In this document: piece by piece, positions 12,479-23,511 of the stretch
Position numbering within the stretch: the stretch's first letter is position 1
Layout: each line of letters opens with the position of its first letter
Sequence record: PQ529420
Length of the DNA: 64,000 nucleotides
Reading direction: 5' to 3' (one strand)
From: Escherichia phage Eryne
Notes under the pieces: model-generated
Databases searched by the model: none
What the model saw: only the letters and a program-made list of their open reading frames with translations
Told to the model about the DNA's origin: nothing
Made by a program: the position numbers and the translations under genes

Positions 12479-12736
12479 AATAACGCGCAGGGGTGGTGTT
12501 TGTCTCGCGCTCCCGTGTCCCCTCGCCATACAATAAGAATAGCATAACCAACAACAAAAGCAAGCGATTATTTCTATCTTTACATTTCTTTACAAATTTA
12601 TTTTAGACGAGCTACCGGCGATCAACCTTCCAACCAGTAGTGCCCTGGTATGTTAGCCCCGCCTTTACGCCGTGGGGGTGGCGTTTCCTCTTCTGTATGT
12701 AAAACAGTATAAGCCCGATCCCTGGGCTTGTCAAGA

Positions 12737-13003
12737 TTATTTTTTGTTTTCTTGCCAGGATAGGACACCTAACCAAAAATACATGTCGCCCCGCGCCCCT
12801 GGCGGGATCTTGCTTTCCCCGCCGCCACTGCAAGCCCATAGATAACCATTTGCGAACGTATCAAAATGATCTATTTCTTCCACCTTATGATCGCCCAGGT
12901 CGAGAACGGTTTCAACCTTTAAGCCCGTTGCGCTTGCTACCTGGTGCACCGTGCCGCCTTGCCAGCCCAATGAGTGCATGAGGTGTAAAGTAGTATTTGT
13001 CAT
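12737..13003 (-). CDS. hypothetical protein in GC-rich segment
   Basis: ORF track; preceded on minus strand by TTGCTA-17-TATTAT promoter, hairpin and RBS. Confidence 0.45.
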   Translation of the reverse strand: MTNTTLHLMHSLGWQGGTVHQVASATGLKVETVLDLGDHKVEEIDHFDTFANGYLWACSGGGESKIPPGARGDMYFWLGVLSWQENKK

Positions 13004-13025
13004 GGTATCGCCCTTTCTTTGATGT

Positions 13026-13079
13026 GCGCCCTGGTTGGCGCGGTAGAAAGATAATAGCCCTTTCCTTTATAGATAGCAA
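13026..13079 (-). promoter_or_regulatory. promoter plus 5' stem-loop cassette (minus strand)
   Basis: rc TTGCTA (13074-13079), 17-nt spacer, TATTAT (13051-13056), hairpin gcgccctggttggcgc (13026-13041). Confidence 0.45.
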
Positions 13080-13114
13080 GCAAAAAAGAAATGAAAAAAA
13101 GATTAAAAAAATGG

Positions 13115-13143
13115 TTGACGTTCCTCACCTGGTAGCGTATTAT
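13115..13143 (+). promoter_or_regulatory. sigma70-type promoter
   Basis: TTGACG-17-TATTAT; followed by imperfect hairpin and a start-stop mini-ORF (ATG TAG at 13198-13203) behind AAGGAGGG. Confidence 0.45.
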
Positions 13144-13271
13144 TCATCTTGTCGAGGGGGGGCGAGGCACAACGACAATAAACAAAAGGAGGGCGCAATG
13201 TAGGACGGGCAAAGGTGAGGATCTCCATAATCCACCGTCACAATAACATTACTTATAAAAGGTTGATAACG

Positions 13272-13367
13272 ATGATCAAGAAAGAAAACAGCTTGACGGT
13301 TGGAACGATTAACGCTATCATTCTAGCCGTTCCATTTTGGGTTGTAGTAGCGGTTATTATCTTTTAA
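13272..13367 (+). CDS. small hydrophobic peptide (31 aa)
   Basis: Hand-translated MIKKENSLTVGTINAIILAVPFWVVVAVIIF; weak RBS. Confidence 0.25.
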   Translation: MIKKENSLTVGTINAIILAVPFWVVVAVIIF

Positions 13368-13375
13368 AAATATTC

Positions 13376-13432
13376 TTGACAACGTTTTTTAATCTGATAA
13401 GATGTATCACATAGGGCGGCAATAGTGCCGCT
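13376..13432 (+). promoter_or_regulatory. promoter plus 5' stem-loop cassette
   Basis: TTGACA, TAAGAT-like -10, conserved tatcacatag, hairpin ggcggcaatagtgccgc. Confidence 0.5.
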
Positions 13433-13455
13433 CATAACAGAAGAGAGAAATAATC

Positions 13456-13728
13456 ATGGCATCATATAGCGCATCAATGATCGTAACGGGCATCACTGGT
13501 AAACCTATGCGCGGTGGCGGATCTTTCGCTAACATAAATATTGATGGACGTTTATCCCTGGATGCAGCGATCACCGTGGCACGGGAAACATTTAAAAAAG
13601 AATGTAATTTCAATAAACAAGATTATCTCGGTTTCGCTATTGAAAAAACCGCGCGATTTGTGGATTATAAAAGCCCGAAAATGATCGACACTACACTAAA
13701 AGCGCAAGATGTAGCGTTTTTGCTTTAA
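13456..13728 (+). CDS. hypothetical protein
   Basis: ORF track; RBS AGAGAGA; own cassette upstream. Confidence 0.55.
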   Translation: MASYSASMIVTGITGKPMRGGGSFANINIDGRLSLDAAITVARETFKKECNFNKQDYLGFAIEKTARFVDYKSPKMIDTTLKAQDVAFLL

Positions 13729-13731
13729 GTC

Positions 13732-13791
13732 TTGACACTGAAAAATAATTTGGTAATATATACTCCATAAGGCGGGAAATGGTTTCCCGCC
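13732..13791 (+). promoter_or_regulatory. promoter plus 5' stem-loop cassette
   Basis: TTGACA (13732), TAATAT, hairpin ggcgggaaatggtttcccgcc (13771-13791). Confidence 0.55.
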
Positions 13792-13816
13792 AGGCCATCA
13801 AAGAAAGGGTAACACA

Positions 13817-14179
13817 ATGAGCAAGCAAATCAATACTATCATGTTAAACCTGGTATCTTTCCGCGACGACGTGAAAAATCTTCCACGTGATGCAGTGGAT
13901 GCACGGATCGAAAGCTATCGCTCACAGATCGCAACGCTACCGCTAAAACGTGATCAACATGCCGCTAATATGATGCTTAATGCTATGCTTAAAAAGATGA
14001 TTCAATGTGATCTTACCCTGGCTTATGAATATGCTGGCGATCTCTTTGTAACATATAGCAAGCCCGTACCAGGTATGAGCACAACGGAAGAATTGCATGC
14101 CTTAAATCTGCGACAAGATGCATGGGATAACATGCGCCGTGTTATGGTATGGGTAGAAAGCGGTAAAATTTACGAATAA
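13817..14179 (+). CDS. hypothetical protein
   Basis: ORF track; RBS AAGAAAGGG. Confidence 0.55.
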   Translation: MSKQINTIMLNLVSFRDDVKNLPRDAVDARIESYRSQIATLPLKRDQHAANMMLNAMLKKMIQCDLTLAYEYAGDLFVTYSKPVPGMSTTEELHALNLRQDAWDNMRRVMVWVESGKIYE

Positions 14180-14185
14180 AAACGG

Positions 14186-14240
14186 TTGACATTGCACTAA
14201 AACCTGATAAGCTATCTTAAAGCGGGAATAGTTCCCGCTT
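14186..14240 (+). promoter_or_regulatory. promoter plus 5' stem-loop cassette
   Basis: TTGACA (14186), TAAGCT-like -10, hairpin agcgggaatagttcccgct. Confidence 0.5.
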
Positions 14241-21630: not shown

Positions 21631-21636
21631 AAAGTA

Positions 21637-21695
21637 TTGACACCGATCCCCCATATGGTATTATTTACCACGTAGGCGGGAAATGGTTTCCCGCC
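21637..21695 (+). promoter_or_regulatory. promoter plus 5' stem-loop cassette
   Basis: TTGACA-16-TATTAT then hairpin ggcgggaaatggtttcccgcc. Confidence 0.6.
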
Positions 21696-21718
21696 AGGTA
21701 ATCAAAAAGGTAAATACT

Positions 21719-22108
21719 ATGCGCAACCTGGTTTCTGTTTCTAACGTTGAAAAATTCCAATCTTTACAGGGTATCGTTAACAACGTAGCGCCTTTTTTAG
21801 TCAATGGCTTGATTGCAAAGATGAAAAATAAACATCATGCGGCATGGTCTGCTTACTGCTTTGATAATGATGAAAAAGCGGCTAAAATGATGTTAAATAT
21901 GCTGTTAGACAGTGTAGAATCATCTTTACCGGAAAACATCGCAGAAGAGATCACCTATCGTTATAAGATGGCGATCACTTACCAGGAGGTTGCGCAATTT
22001 AATATGATGGATGATGACGAACAACAGGATCAGGAAATGTTCTGGGAGTATGCAGATCGTCAATCGGCTTTTGATGAAAAGTTAGCGATGTATTATAACG
22101 AATATTAA
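21719..22108 (+). CDS. hypothetical protein
   Basis: Start moved to MRNLVSV; the track start lies inside the hairpin. Confidence 0.55.
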   Translation: MRNLVSVSNVEKFQSLQGIVNNVAPFLVNGLIAKMKNKHHAAWSAYCFDNDEKAAKMMLNMLLDSVESSLPENIAEEITYRYKMAITYQEVAQFNMMDDDEQQDQEMFWEYADRQSAFDEKLAMYYNEY

Positions 22109-22121
22109 TACACGGTAAAAG

Positions 22122-22148
22122 AAAGGGGCGCACTAAGCGCCCTTTTTT
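22122..22148 (+). terminator. rho-independent terminator
   Basis: aggggcgcactaagcgccct followed by tttttt. Confidence 0.65.
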
Positions 22149-22492
22149 GTATTCTTTTTCACAATGGAAGCGACACGTAAAGAATAGGCGTAAAGGTGGC
22201 GTAAAACCATCTAAAACCGACTGTAACCGCTTAAACAAGGTAGGAATGATTAATCACCTTACCAGGATGAAAAAGCTGTTATAAAGCTATCTAGAGCGTT
22301 TAAAGCACATAGGAAATAATTTGCTTTTTATCTTGCCTTTTATCCTGCTTTTGATTATTATTATGGAACGGGCGGCACCTGGGGACAGGGGAAGATAATC
22401 ACCGGAAGATCCCGCTATATATTAATAGCTAATACCTATCAAACAACAAAACATCAAAGGAATAAACTATCAAATCTTTACAATCCTACCTA

Positions 22493-22552
22493 TTGACACA
22501 GGATCACCCTTATACTAATATGTATCCCGTAGGGCGGGAAATGGTTTCCCGC
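22493..22552 (+). promoter_or_regulatory. promoter plus 5' stem-loop cassette
   Basis: TTGACA-17-TAATAT then hairpin gcgggaaatggtttcccgc. Confidence 0.6.
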
Positions 22553-22571
22553 TTGATATAGGAATCATACC

Positions 22572-22805
22572 ATGATCGAACAAATTAAAAGCACTACACC
22601 AAATGTTAACGGCAATGTTTCACACTTTATCAGTGATAATGAAAGGGGCACACCATACGCCGCCGTAACCGTGCAACCTAATGGCGATTATTGGTTTACC
22701 GTGTACGGATCATACTCTTTCGGACGCCCGGTACATGATAAGATCTTGCAAGCGGTTAAACCTGCGGGGAAGAATATCACAGCAGAAAAATTTTATAAAA
22801 AATAG
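22572..22805 (+). CDS. hypothetical protein
   Basis: ORF track. Confidence 0.5.
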   Translation: MIEQIKSTTPNVNGNVSHFISDNERGTPYAAVTVQPNGDYWFTVYGSYSFGRPVHDKILQAVKPAGKNITAEKFYKK

Positions 22806-22806
22806 C

Positions 22807-22835
22807 TTGCTTTATTTCTTCTGTTAACTTATAGT
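22807..22835 (+). promoter_or_regulatory. sigma70-type promoter with degenerate hairpin remnant
   Basis: TTGCTT-17-TATAGT then tatcgcgtagggcaaac. Confidence 0.4.
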
Positions 22836-22880
22836 TATCGCGTAGGGCAAACAATTTTAAACGGTAAACGAGGAATCACC

Positions 22881-23264
22881 ATGAGCAATATCATCAACCT
22901 GGCAGCGACTGTAAACGGTAAAGACTTTAACGGCGCTGTAGACCGTGATCCTATGTGGTGCTTATCAGTGTTTAAAGGCGATCTGGTTGAAGTTAGAACA
23001 ACCGAAGGGTATAGCGATGATTATAAATGCGAGATCCATTTACACAACTGGTACACGGGTAAAACTTATGCGCTGAATCATGCGTTTATCGGCAAGGTTG
23101 AATATAGAGAAATGATCGACGAAGAAACGGGGCAAGATTTTAGCGAGCATGTTTATATTCGTTCCGAGACATTAGCCGAACGTTTGATCGAGAAAATGAA
23201 AGCAAAAAATAAAATTAATTTAACTCATTGGATTGATATAACAAACGATCCTGCTTATCAGTAA
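22881..23264 (+). CDS. hypothetical protein
   Basis: ORF track. Confidence 0.55.
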   Translation: MSNIINLAATVNGKDFNGAVDRDPMWCLSVFKGDLVEVRTTEGYSDDYKCEIHLHNWYTGKTYALNHAFIGKVEYREMIDEETGQDFSEHVYIRSETLAERLIEKMKAKNKINLTHWIDITNDPAYQ

Positions 23265-23278
23265 ATAACATTTCATAC

Positions 23279-23306
23279 CAGGGCGCACAAAGCGCCCTTT
23301 CTTTTT
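23279..23306 (+). terminator. rho-independent terminator at end of cassette array
   Basis: gggcgcacaaagcgccc followed by tttcttttt. Confidence 0.6.
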
Positions 23307-23511
23307 ACCTAAATAAAGATGATAGCTTTTACCTATCAAGAACGTTCACCGAAAAAAGTGAATAGATCGCGGTATCGAGCTAATCAAGGAGCAGATGAAC
23401 AACCATACCATGAAGATCATAAGGCGCTTACAGCGTGTTTTAGACCGCTTATTTTTAATTTCTTCATGCAACTATCTGGCAAAAACAGCCTTTTTCTCAT
23501 CTTTCCTCTTA

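Follow-up and report, generated by a model that had tools for sequence, protein, structure and literature searches.

A compositional island of laterally exchanged, self-promoted gene cassettes in Escherichia phage Eryne, probably an immediate-early region with a stationary composition of its own

Does a GC-rich block of small genes in a phage genome have to be a recent import? The question is raised by Escherichia phage Eryne (sequence record PQ529420), where the segment at positions 12480-23310 of the 64,000-nucleotide stretch analysed here (the window) is crowded with small open reading frames (ORFs), stands between AT-rich flanks, and was interpreted in a first-pass annotation as a cassette array acquired horizontally from a different genomic background. 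According to the present analysis this island is an ancestral, syntenic array in which cassettes are exchanged inside a stable, separately evolving compartment. We consider it probable that it represents the hyperplastic, probably immediate-early gene region of a phi92-like coliphage, composed of self-promoted cassettes that circulate laterally and hold a stationary composition of their own. Megablast of positions 11000-25000 returned 297 phage records, with vB-Eco-KMB37 at the top (100% coverage, 96.9% identity), followed by Escherichia phage Paula (98.9%) and then by alia, muut, and phi92; to judge by these matches, the source is a virulent Justusliebigvirus (phi92-like) coliphage of the Stephanstirmvirinae.

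The guanine-cytosine (GC) richness claimed for the segment was borne out, with 40.2% GC versus 36.7% in the rest of the window; among all windows of island length the GC maximum starts at 12601, so that the island is the GC peak, and in bins of 500 nucleotides (nt) the mean GC is 0.402 versus 0.367 (Mann-Whitney p=6e-6). The GC-rich string quoted as an example, CCCGCGCCCCTGGCGGG, was located at 12790-12806 within the minus-strand gene 12737-13003. Codon usage, one of the checks that had been proposed, differs as well, and the contrast sits at third codon positions, where GC (GC3) is 0.394 in the island versus 0.26-0.31 outside (0.385 versus 0.286 per gene, p=9e-9), first and second positions (GC1, GC2) being alike. 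In relative synonymous codon usage (RSCU) three non-island gene sets correlate mutually at r=0.94-0.96 and with the island at 0.55-0.61. Tetranucleotide z-scores, the other proposed check, correlate at r=0.34-0.47 between the island and backbone segments versus 0.64-0.74 between backbone segments, and the oligonucleotide contrast exceeds the GC contrast: per kb of island and of the rest, respectively, GATC occurs 9.0 and 4.1 times, CCWGG 4.6 and 1.05, GCGC 4.4 and 0.9, and CGCG 2.9 and 0.47. In the complete genome of alia, which is 98% identical across the aligned window and about 96% identical in the island, such a signature is confined to the homologous 10 kb out of 148 kb.

The ribosome-binding sites (RBSs) are also of a different style, as had been proposed. 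The median anti-Shine-Dalgarno pairing energy is -5.0 kcal/mol in the island versus -7.4 to -9.2 outside (p=3e-9), a strong 5-mer Shine-Dalgarno (SD) sequence is present in 19% of island genes versus 57-85% outside, and AGAGA, AAGAG, or GAGAG in 39% versus 15-26%; typical island leaders contain AAAGAGA, AGAAGAGA, or AAAGAAAGG. Starts outside the island were chosen automatically with the SD among the criteria, and the same picker gave weak SDs in the island too. The island is thus significantly different from the rest of the window in GC, codons, tetranucleotides, and RBSs. Structured RNA was sought in the GC-rich non-coding part 12470-12740, where the folding energy was no better than in shuffles on both strands. 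Within the island, MazF sites are not avoided (ACA as expected, z=1.4), and RegB sites are only slightly low (GGAG, z=-1.8).

The island is organized as a head-to-tail array of 27 ORFs of 45-184 amino acids (aa) and four mini-ORFs, all on the plus strand except the divergent 12737-13003, and the majority of them are headed by a module of about 80-90 nt (up to 100 bp). Each module combines a near-consensus sigma-70 promoter (TTGACA, a spacer of 16-17 nt, and a -10 element frequently of the extended TGn type), a perfect GC-rich hairpin with a 5-9-bp stem that begins 8-11 nt past the -10 hexamer, a purine-rich unpaired leader of 18-25 nt with a weak SD of AAAGAGA type, and the ATG, whose context is frequently ATCATGGCT. 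The most frequent hairpins are GGCGGGAAA-TGG-TTTCCCGCC, GCGGCA-ATAG-TGCCGC, and GCGGGAA-TAG-TTCCCGC. A promoter scan of the island gave 51 sites versus 30.7+/-4.6 in shuffles; plus-strand promoters scoring at least 10/12 numbered 22 in the 10.8-kb island versus 7 in the equal-sized control 25000-35830, and strict promoter plus hairpin modules numbered 14 versus 0.11 expected by chance. In the 148-kb genome of alia 12 of the 17 strict modules lie in the island. When looser cases found by eye are included, there are 15 modules before a gene, one orphan module, and one promoterless hairpin.

Hairpin energies are about -12 to -16 kcal/mol, and the predicted folds of 5' untranslated regions (UTRs) consist of 3-5 free 5' nt, a hairpin of -14 to -16 kcal/mol, and an open leader, with hairpin z-scores of -2.9 to -3.8 in seven of eight folded 5' UTRs. 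Three true terminators are present (17906-17934, 22120-22148, and 23280-23298); the terminator scan reported the latter two on the plus strand and the palindromic 17910-17934, which has a plus-strand T-run, on the minus strand. The same scan flagged just three module hairpins, each on the opposite strand. On the plus (coding) strand the module hairpins have no T-run or U-tract after them, which makes a terminator role doubtful. The exact hairpin GCGGGAAATGGTTTCCCGC was found in IMG/VR on three contigs only and is therefore a lineage-restricted stem sequence. The MAFFT alignment of 16 modules misaligns stems of unequal length and was not used for covariation statistics or a covariance model.

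The borders of these cassettes are where related genomes part. When homology end points were taken against Paula, alia, muut, phi92, and the Phapecoctavirus vB_Ec-G1, 44 of the 46 fell between genes or at most 15 nt from the end of a coding sequence, positions that make up 35% of the island (p=3e-18). Entire cassettes are absent, substituted, or reordered between relatives, and their order is permuted in other lineages (jumbo phage WPEC3, our L006, as well as L007 and L010). In a sensitive nucleotide search pieces of the island matched Phapecoctavirus at 81-85%, Vequintavirus (rV5-like) at 79-87%, and jumbo phages of 350-384 kb at about 73%, while the backbone control 40000-47900 reached about 71% identity in Phapecoctavirus, was undetectable in Vequintavirus, and matched jumbo phages in its methylase gene only. 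Ten of 17 cassette genes in common with Phapecoctavirus have 91-100% protein identity with 80-88% of synonymous codons identical, compared with 55-68% protein identity and 42-52% of synonymous codons kept for five of the six flanking backbone genes. Some cassettes reach 85-94% protein identity to Vequintavirus FV3. The DUF7249 gene is further found in a podophage and in phages of Vibrio, Ralstonia, and Synechococcus, and its jumbo-phage copy (85%) is nearer than some copies from the same subfamily. The same module design recurs in the arrays of FV3 and WPEC3. From the break points at cassette borders, the identities across lineages, the retention of synonymous codons, the spread of DUF7249, and the common module design, lateral exchange of single cassettes can be taken as demonstrated at the level of sequence comparison. 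Outside the array, the backbone gene 6861-7145 (minus strand) has 98% protein identity to vB_Ec-G1 with 91% of synonymous codons kept, and its neighbours have 55-68%; judged by these values, it is another recent lateral exchange.

The claim of horizontal acquisition therefore stands in one part and falls in another, since lateral transfer is real, proceeds cassette by cassette, and continues, but the data do not indicate that the array as a whole came in a single import from a foreign genome. According to the latter explanation the array was acquired once from a GC-richer donor, whose composition and RBS style it retained. In favour of such an import, the island does depart from its surroundings in composition, codon usage, and RBS style, operator-like palindromes of similar form are found at its two edges, and its tetranucleotide signature correlates better with the Vequintavirus array (r=0.63) than with the backbone of the phage itself (0.57). 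Against it, the array occupies the same locus in all Justusliebigvirus, Phapecoctavirus, and Vequintavirus (rV5-like) genomes examined, individual cassettes alone vary, and neither an empty site nor patchy presence was seen among these genomes. In every relative examined the array adjoins the same long non-coding region, which in the rV5 paper is ORF-free with 88 mainly small ORFs around it (PMC3606486). Neither an integrase nor a tRNA gene is found at the island borders.

Composition itself argues in the same direction. GGCC, counted on both strands, is avoided in the island (8 versus 52 expected) as in the rest (24 versus 83), and in jumbo phage WPEC3 GCGC is absent from 20 kb of array and flank alike (GATC is nearly nil outside the cassette array there); this avoidance common to array and backbone indicates that each array is adapted to its resident genome. 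GGCC in Eryne is depleted about 6-fold within and 3.5-fold outside the island. Polarised singleton substitutions in the island (four genomes), which may include recombinational imports, comprise 206 AT-to-GC and 214 GC-to-AT changes, and the resulting equilibrium GC of 0.39 (0.45 with seven genomes) compares with 0.40 now, so that no decay towards the backbone, that is, no amelioration, is apparent. Equilibrium GC is about 0.35 in the left backbone and right flank and 0.39-0.40 in two further backbone segments, each near its present GC; substitution density is 5.0% in the island versus 2.5-3.8% in the backbone. Arrays of four lineages, whose backbones range over about 34-43% GC, carry the same signature, and their flanks do not. 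According to the synteny, the GGCC avoidance, the balanced substitutions, and the signature in four lineages, the island composition is a stable property of such DNA. Moreover, GC3 per island gene spans 0.26-0.59 and divergence from Phapecoctavirus is bimodal, which shows that cassettes have different histories. The array is not a classical genomic island, being not patchy and having no amelioration and apparently no mobility genes at its borders, and a single import of the whole is very unlikely.

The features of the island and its edges are the following (coordinates, strand, description).

11976-12479, no strand: AT-rich non-coding spacer, left edge of the island.
12174-12394, in the left spacer: three direct repeats of ~70-79 nt with 72% identity, each with TTTGAAAATGAAAAGTTCAA.
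12480-23310: compositional island with about 31 small ORFs, 30 on the plus strand and 1 divergent.
12711-12729, minus: terminator-like hairpin 3' of the divergent gene.
12737-13079, minus: divergent cassette with promoter TTGCTA-N17-TATTAT (-35 at 13079-13074), hairpin 13026-13041, and leader AAAGAAAGGG.
12737-13003, minus: divergent gene of 88 aa, phi92 gp224, GC 0.50.
13115-13367, plus: first rightward promoters 13115 and 13293 and a doubtful small ORF 13215-13367.
13376-13728, plus: cassette with promoter TTGACA-16-TAAGAT (extended -10), hairpin 13416-13431, and gene 13456-13728 (90 aa).
13732-14179, plus: cassette with promoter 13732, hairpin 13771-13791 (GGCGGGAAA-TGG-TTTCCCGCC), and gene 13817-14179 (120 aa), which is common to rV5-like and jumbo phages.
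14186-15223, plus: three-gene unit with promoter 14186, hairpin 14220-14240, and genes 14258-14404, 14407-14667 (TTG start, strong SD), and 14669-15223.
15227-15300, plus: orphan promoter plus hairpin (15270-15282) with no ORF, possibly a remnant of cassette deletion.
15305-15549, plus: cassette with perfect promoter TTGACA-16-TATAAT, no hairpin, and gene 15370-15549 (59 aa); missing in muut and phi92.
15569-16010, plus: cassette with promoter 15569, no hairpin, and gene 15645-16010 (121 aa).
16017-16432, plus: cassette with perfect promoter, hairpin 16058-16074, and gene 16099-16338 (DUF7249, 79 aa).
16352-16432, plus: mini-ORF with strong SD at the end of the preceding cassette.
16434-16743, plus: cassette with promoter 16434, hairpin 16473-16493, and gene 16516-16743.
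16752-17046, plus: cassette with promoter 16752, hairpin 16792-16807, and gene 16831-17046.
17053-17307, plus: cassette with weaker promoter TTGCAA-17-TAAACT, hairpin 17093-17114 (GGCGGTGG...CCACCGCC), and gene 17137-17307.
17315-17934, plus: unit with promoter 17315, hairpin 17353-17373, genes 17394-17753 and 17769-17906, and bidirectional terminator 17906-17934.
18026-19197, plus: lower-GC sub-cluster with genes 18026-18208, 18217-18618 (signal peptide), and 18666-18968.
18973-19068 and 19078-19197, plus: hydrophobic mini-ORFs of the same sub-cluster.
19227-19621, plus: cassette with promoter 19227 and gene 19298-19621.
19622-19988, plus: cassette with promoter 19622, hairpin 19663-19683, and gene 19704-19988.
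19990-20243, plus: cassette with promoter 19990, hairpin 20031-20049, and gene 20073-20243.
20251-20560, plus: hairpin 20251-20271 without its own promoter and gene 20291-20560.
20562-20835, plus: cassette with promoter 20562, hairpin 20602-20617, and gene 20641-20835, whose product has 94% protein identity to Vequintavirus FV3.
20837-21630, plus: unit with promoter 20837, hairpin 20875-20898, hydrophobic mini-ORF 20917-21021, and genes 21032-21247 and 21244-21630.
21637-22148, plus: cassette with promoter 21637, hairpin 21675-21695, gene 21719-22108, and terminator 22120-22148.
22493-22805, plus: cassette with promoter 22493, hairpin 22534-22552, and gene 22572-22805; in alia it is swapped for another, exactly between 22497 and 22832.
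22881-23298, plus: last gene 22881-23264 (T4 Gp30.8 family, PF06019) and terminator 23280-23298.
23310-24980, no strand: AT-rich non-coding right edge with operator-like palindromes, a tandem repeat, and the terminal-repeat equivalent.
23880-23930, in the right non-coding region: tandem repeat of 3 x 16-nt unit TAATCATTTCATACAG.

The orphan module 15227-15300 and the promoterless hairpin 20251-20271 look like scars of cassette deletion or fusion. The sub-cluster 18026-19197 has three promoters (18150, 18615, and 19006), all hairpin-less, as well as stronger SDs and GC3 of 0.27-0.42, and its origin or function may be different from that of the rest of the array. In PHROGs 26 of the 27 main island proteins fall in families with unknown function, the product of 20291-20560 alone being without a match; Pfam on nine island proteins returned DUF7249 (16099-16338) and the T4 Gp30.8 family (22881-23264) only, and PADLOC on ten island proteins gave no credible defence or anti-defence match. 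The repeat_region annotated in muut maps to about the tandem repeat 23880-23930. The operator-like palindromes AATGA(T/G)AATCATTCTCA have 13 matches versus 0.52 expected and lie at both island edges and in the terminal-repeat equivalent (12411-12473, 23512-23586, 24462-24482, and 24661-24679), with one isolated copy with 3 mismatches inside the island (19805-19821). Paula, alia, muut, phi92, A110a, and ZYD have them at conserved positions, and for the left-edge copy this holds in Phapecoctavirus as well; the copy 24463-24481 agrees with the E. coli Fur-box consensus at 17/19 positions. A regulator operator, a packaging signal, and a replication signal are candidates for their role.

If the composition was not imported, what maintains it? 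An unexpected finding is a dense occurrence of GATC (Dam) and CCWGG (Dcm) sites, which was evaluated by shuffling synonymous codons within each gene set with proteins and codon usage preserved. The values obtained are listed by gene set.

Eryne island: GATC 86 observed and 50 expected (z=7.6), 1.7x; CCWGG 39 and 10.9 (z=10.7), 3.6x.
Eryne backbone: GATC z=1.9; CCWGG z=2.5.
Phapecoctavirus array: GATC 1.71x (z=6.9); CCWGG 3.04x (z=7.3); CTWGG+CCWAG 0.23.
Vequintavirus FV3 array: GATC 1.61x; CCWGG 1.92x; CTWGG+CCWAG 0.51.
Jumbo phage WPEC3 array: GATC 1.26x versus 0.14x in the flank; CCWGG 2.85x; CTWGG+CCWAG 0.30.
43 E. coli genes: GATC 1.1x; CCWGG 0.96x; CTWGG+CCWAG 0.58.

The flanks of the Phapecoctavirus, FV3, and WPEC3 arrays have no GATC or CCWGG excess, so that the excess is restricted to the arrays, for CCWGG in four lineages and for GATC in three. 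In the island the highest-scoring words under a maximal-order Markov model are CCAG/CTGG (z=8.1), GATC (z=7.5), and CCWGG (z=6.4), while CTTGG and CCAAG together occur once versus 9.2 expected, CTAGG and CCTAG are near expectation, and TTGG/CCAA is depleted. The excess arises because synonymous codons are chosen according to context. When the preceding codon ends in C and the next one starts with G, leucine is encoded by CTG in 18 of 26 cases versus 17 of 168 elsewhere (p=3e-10) and glutamine by CAG in all 10 versus 16 of 64 elsewhere; isoleucine after a codon ending in G is encoded by ATC in 48 of 67 cases versus 48 of 133 (p=3e-6). In other contexts CTG (10% in the island versus 11% outside) and CAG (25% versus 26%) equal the backbone, and therefore a part of the island shift to host codon usage is creation of Dam and Dcm sites.

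This context dependence bears directly on translational selection as the only cause, in which vertically inherited early genes would be tuned to the tRNAs and ribosomes of the uninfected host, phage tRNAs being still unavailable at that stage, and no transfer would be needed. Such tuning would account for the shift being confined to third codon positions and for the RSCU correlation with E. coli genes, which is r=0.50-0.54 for the island and -0.01 to 0.28 for backbone gene sets. It would also fit the 15 tRNA genes of the phage, all of them elsewhere in the genome (according to the complete genome of alia), several of which decode codons preferred by the backbone over the island (ACA, GGA, CAA, and CCA). 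However, the CTG and CAG shift and about half of the ATC shift are found only where CCWGG or GATC arises, which tRNA adaptation would not predict; island codon usage is still far from that of E. coli (RSCU of 2.04 for TTA and 1.14 for CTG), and the small-ORF, strong-SD block at 25-37.7 kb has codon usage of the ordinary backbone type. Since lateral exchange was directly demonstrated as well, translational selection alone is an unlikely explanation.

High CCWGG with low CTWGG/CCWAG is the pattern attributed to Vsr very-short-patch (VSP) repair in E. coli, which brings in biased gene conversion as the main cause: the array alone would be similar enough between co-infecting lineages to form heteroduplexes, and host repair, including Vsr acting on T:G in CTWGG, would drive it to GC and CCWGG. 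This is possible rather than probable. The four arrays show CCWGG at 1.9-3.6x, the other three have CTWGG plus CCWAG at 0.23-0.51x, and flanks lack the pattern; in the Eryne island the depletion affects CTTGG and CCAAG but spares CTAGG and CCTAG, no tetranucleotide is more over-represented than CCAG/CTGG, and TTGG/CCAA is depleted. Each of the four phages has a higher GC3 in its array than in the flank, and the raised substitution density and dense recombination break points of the island fit as well. The K-12 VSP signature reportedly described by Bhagwat and McClelland in 1992 and by Merkl et al. in 1992 consists of high CCWGG and CCAG/CTGG with low CTWGG and CTAG, and the island resembles it in the rise of CCAG/CTGG and CCWGG and the fall of CTTGG/CCAAG and TTGG/CCAA. 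Unlike that signature, the island bias is 3.6x versus 0.96x in the tested E. coli genes under the same repair, so that the drive would need to be far stronger in the arrays; it is confined to ~10 kb of genome, and it adds a GATC excess (1.6-1.7x) that VSP repair leaves unexplained. We know of no biased repair that would yield such an excess. The singletons show no AT-to-GC excess, which is expected at equilibrium and hence does not discriminate, and Pfam found no Vsr homologue near the phage methylase gene. The C5 methyltransferase of the phage was considered as a Dcm-like source of CCWGG and rejected, having 24% identity to E. coli Dcm over common catalytic motifs.

GATC and CCWGG are the contexts in which the E. 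coli mismatch-repair endonucleases MutH and Vsr act. A tentative and rather doubtful further proposal is that the early-gene arrays of enterobacterial virulent myophages are specifically built, via context-dependent synonymous choice, for dense Dam and Dcm sites, as an undescribed device or drive. If so, methylation state or SeqA binding of the first-expressed DNA could time or shut off early transcription; alternatively, host mismatch-repair nicking and biased conversion could be harnessed to keep the cassette pool recombining across unrelated lineages. The literature on Stephanstirmvirinae and Vequintavirinae gave no account of the array, its composition, or the GATC/CCWGG excess.

The repeated palindromes may suggest an integron-like or other site-specific system, in which they would serve as recombination sites for a dedicated recombinase such as the serine recombinase 45290-45952. 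Perfect palindromes recur at cassette borders, break points coincide with modules, the orphan module 15227-15300 has no ORF, and a resolvase-family gene does exist in the backbone. Like an integron, the array consists of tandem small, promoter-dependent, laterally exchanged ORFs parted by palindromic repeats. Integron attC sites are imperfect palindromes of 57-141 bp downstream of ORFs; the repeats here are promoter plus 13-25-nt hairpin units upstream of ORFs, each cassette has its own promoter, and no attC is present. In a scan that covered part of the window ORFs no IntI tyrosine recombinase, attI, or Pc promoter was found beside the array, the sole recombinase seen being the serine resolvase. 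The absence of IntI among the scanned ORFs and of attC, together with a promoter per cassette, means that the array is not an integron. In addition, palindrome centres of 3-4 nt are ill-suited to the 2-bp crossover of serine recombinases, and homologous recombination between 80-100-bp modules suffices, as for the T4-like cassettes discussed next (PMC2839356). A dedicated site-specific system is hardly tenable.

The closest known counterparts are the promoter-early stem-loop (PeSL) cassettes of the hyperplastic regions of T4-like phages RB49, phi1, PST, and nt-1 (Arbiol et al. 2010, PMC2839356; Comeau et al. 2014, PMC4122927). There, promoter plus stem-loop cassettes were experimentally established as drivers of modular shuffling (PMC2839356, PMC4122927), and recombination between modules was shown, including cassette mini-circles (PMC2839356). 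Alike are the strong sigma-70-type promoter, GC-rich stem-loop, and SD in a short spacer before small ORFan genes, the dense clusters in variable regions with cassettes bringing their own expression signals, and the indels and replacements between close relatives at modules; one cassette gene here is even of the T4 Gp30.8 family. Unlike PeSLs, the backbones here are those of phi92-like, rV5-like, and jumbo phages and not of a T4-like myovirus, and the hairpin is fixed 8-11 nt past the -10 element in the 5' UTR, whereas PeSL stem-loops take five positions, mostly between or over the promoter hexamers, of which the island matches one sub-class (PMC2839356). The compositional contrast and the Dam/Dcm-site excess are not among the PeSL features noted in the passages considered (PMC2839356, PMC4122927). 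Thus, the array is a PeSL analogue in other phage lineages with a distinct module geometry, and since it sits in a Justusliebigvirus (Stephanstirmvirinae) backbone it is an analogue and not a member by descent.

The position of the array in the genome invites comparison with other early regions. In the Paula annotation the island is equivalent to phi92 gp224-gp248, with which the gene list of the phi92 record closes. This record terminates in a 343-bp right terminal repeat, and its end aligns to window position 24732; the equivalent of this direct repeat lies at about 24390-24732, and a sister phage has a 342-bp terminal repeat (PMC12210895). Because the equivalent falls within 23310-24980, the physical right genome end lies there, ~1.1 kb from the island end, and the window crosses the terminus into left-end genes. 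The array is transcribed towards this nearby end. To its left are an ATPase, an HNH endonuclease, and a NADAR-like protein, and to its right non-coding DNA with the terminal repeat. A tRNA scan of the window found zero tRNA genes, and an Rfam scan of the entire window at gathering thresholds found no known RNA family. The backbone also encodes a SIR2-family protein (38114-38926, minus strand), a C5 cytosine methyltransferase that is not Dcm-like (40258-41247, minus strand), and the resolvase-family serine recombinase (45290-45952, minus strand), 22 kb from the array. About 20 UNVERIFIED "Campylobacter phage" records (A110a, A145, D1, C15, and others, including MG065689.1) are 95-96% identical to this coliphage group and are probably mislabelled coliphages.

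The T5 pre-early and T7 class I regions consist of small host-takeover genes near a genome end that host RNA polymerase transcribes from several very strong sigma-70 promoters, and the array resembles both in being a block of small genes near the genome end with sigma-70 promoters. In T5 these genes lie inside a ~10-kb terminal repeat, whereas here the repeat is ~343 bp and the array, ending about 23300, lies outside it, so that it is not a T5-type pre-early region. T7 differs in its three tandem promoters and RNase III sites with one long transcript, while nearly every gene here has a promoter; T7 early transcription also runs away from the near end, and the array runs towards it. Lambdoid morons are likewise single genes with their own promoter, sometimes with a terminator, that were laterally added, but they are scattered, have no conserved repeated flanking module, are thought to arise by illegitimate insertion, and are typically expressed from prophages, whereas the present cassettes form an array with a common module and are found in virulent phages. 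The T5-type pre-early region is treated in PMC10644984 and bioRxiv 10.64898/2026.01.13.699316.

Taken together, the probable reading of the island as an early-gene region with laterally circulating cassettes implies the following course. Soon after DNA entry host RNA polymerase would transcribe each cassette separately, as suggested by the promoter type and by analogy with PeSLs and classical early regions. The 5'-terminal hairpin may shield the short mRNA from 5'-end-dependent decay, a role suggested by its constant placement at about +3 to +5, the missing U-tract, and general knowledge on 5' stem-loops, which protect E. coli mRNAs when few 5' nucleotides are left unpaired. Cassettes are gained, lost, replaced, and reshuffled at the repeated regulatory modules, presumably through recombination between modules, as the break-point positions and the PeSL precedent suggest, and they circulate among Stephanstirmvirinae, Vequintavirinae, and jumbo coliphages. 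The distinct composition most likely combines three causes and not a recent import of the block: frequent recombination with GC-biased host mismatch correction, of which a Vsr very-short-patch signature can be seen, translation from the host tRNA pool, and some advantage of, or drive towards, Dam and Dcm sites.

Several points weigh against this reading. About 1/3 of cassettes have a promoter without a hairpin, and some genes have neither. The high nucleotide identity of cassettes across genera could partly reflect strong constraint, although constraint as the only reason is disfavoured by the 80-88% identity of synonymous codons. GC-biased conversion leaves the GATC excess unaccounted for, and the tRNA argument is mixed, as TTA, TCA, and CTA do not fit. 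The literature on Stephanstirmvirinae and Vequintavirinae yielded no transcriptome data, and the term "early" follows from promoter type alone. Stabilization of mRNA by the hairpin is derived from general knowledge of E. coli mRNA decay, and in T4-like PeSLs the stem-loops were shown to be terminators or attenuators (PMC2839356).

At the reading's own strength, the PeSL-like design is not peculiar to T4-like phages, as phi92-like, rV5-like, and jumbo coliphages follow it too, and the modules double as recombination joints through which those lineages tap a pool of early genes that they have in common and that circulates laterally. Early genes of this kind are the usual place of anti-defence and host-takeover functions, and several such phage groups are in therapy collections. 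The anomaly of Dam and Dcm sites is testable and could reveal an unusually strong repair bias or a role of host methylation in early phage gene expression. Finally, a compositional island of a phage need not be a recent import and can be a stable, separately evolving compartment.

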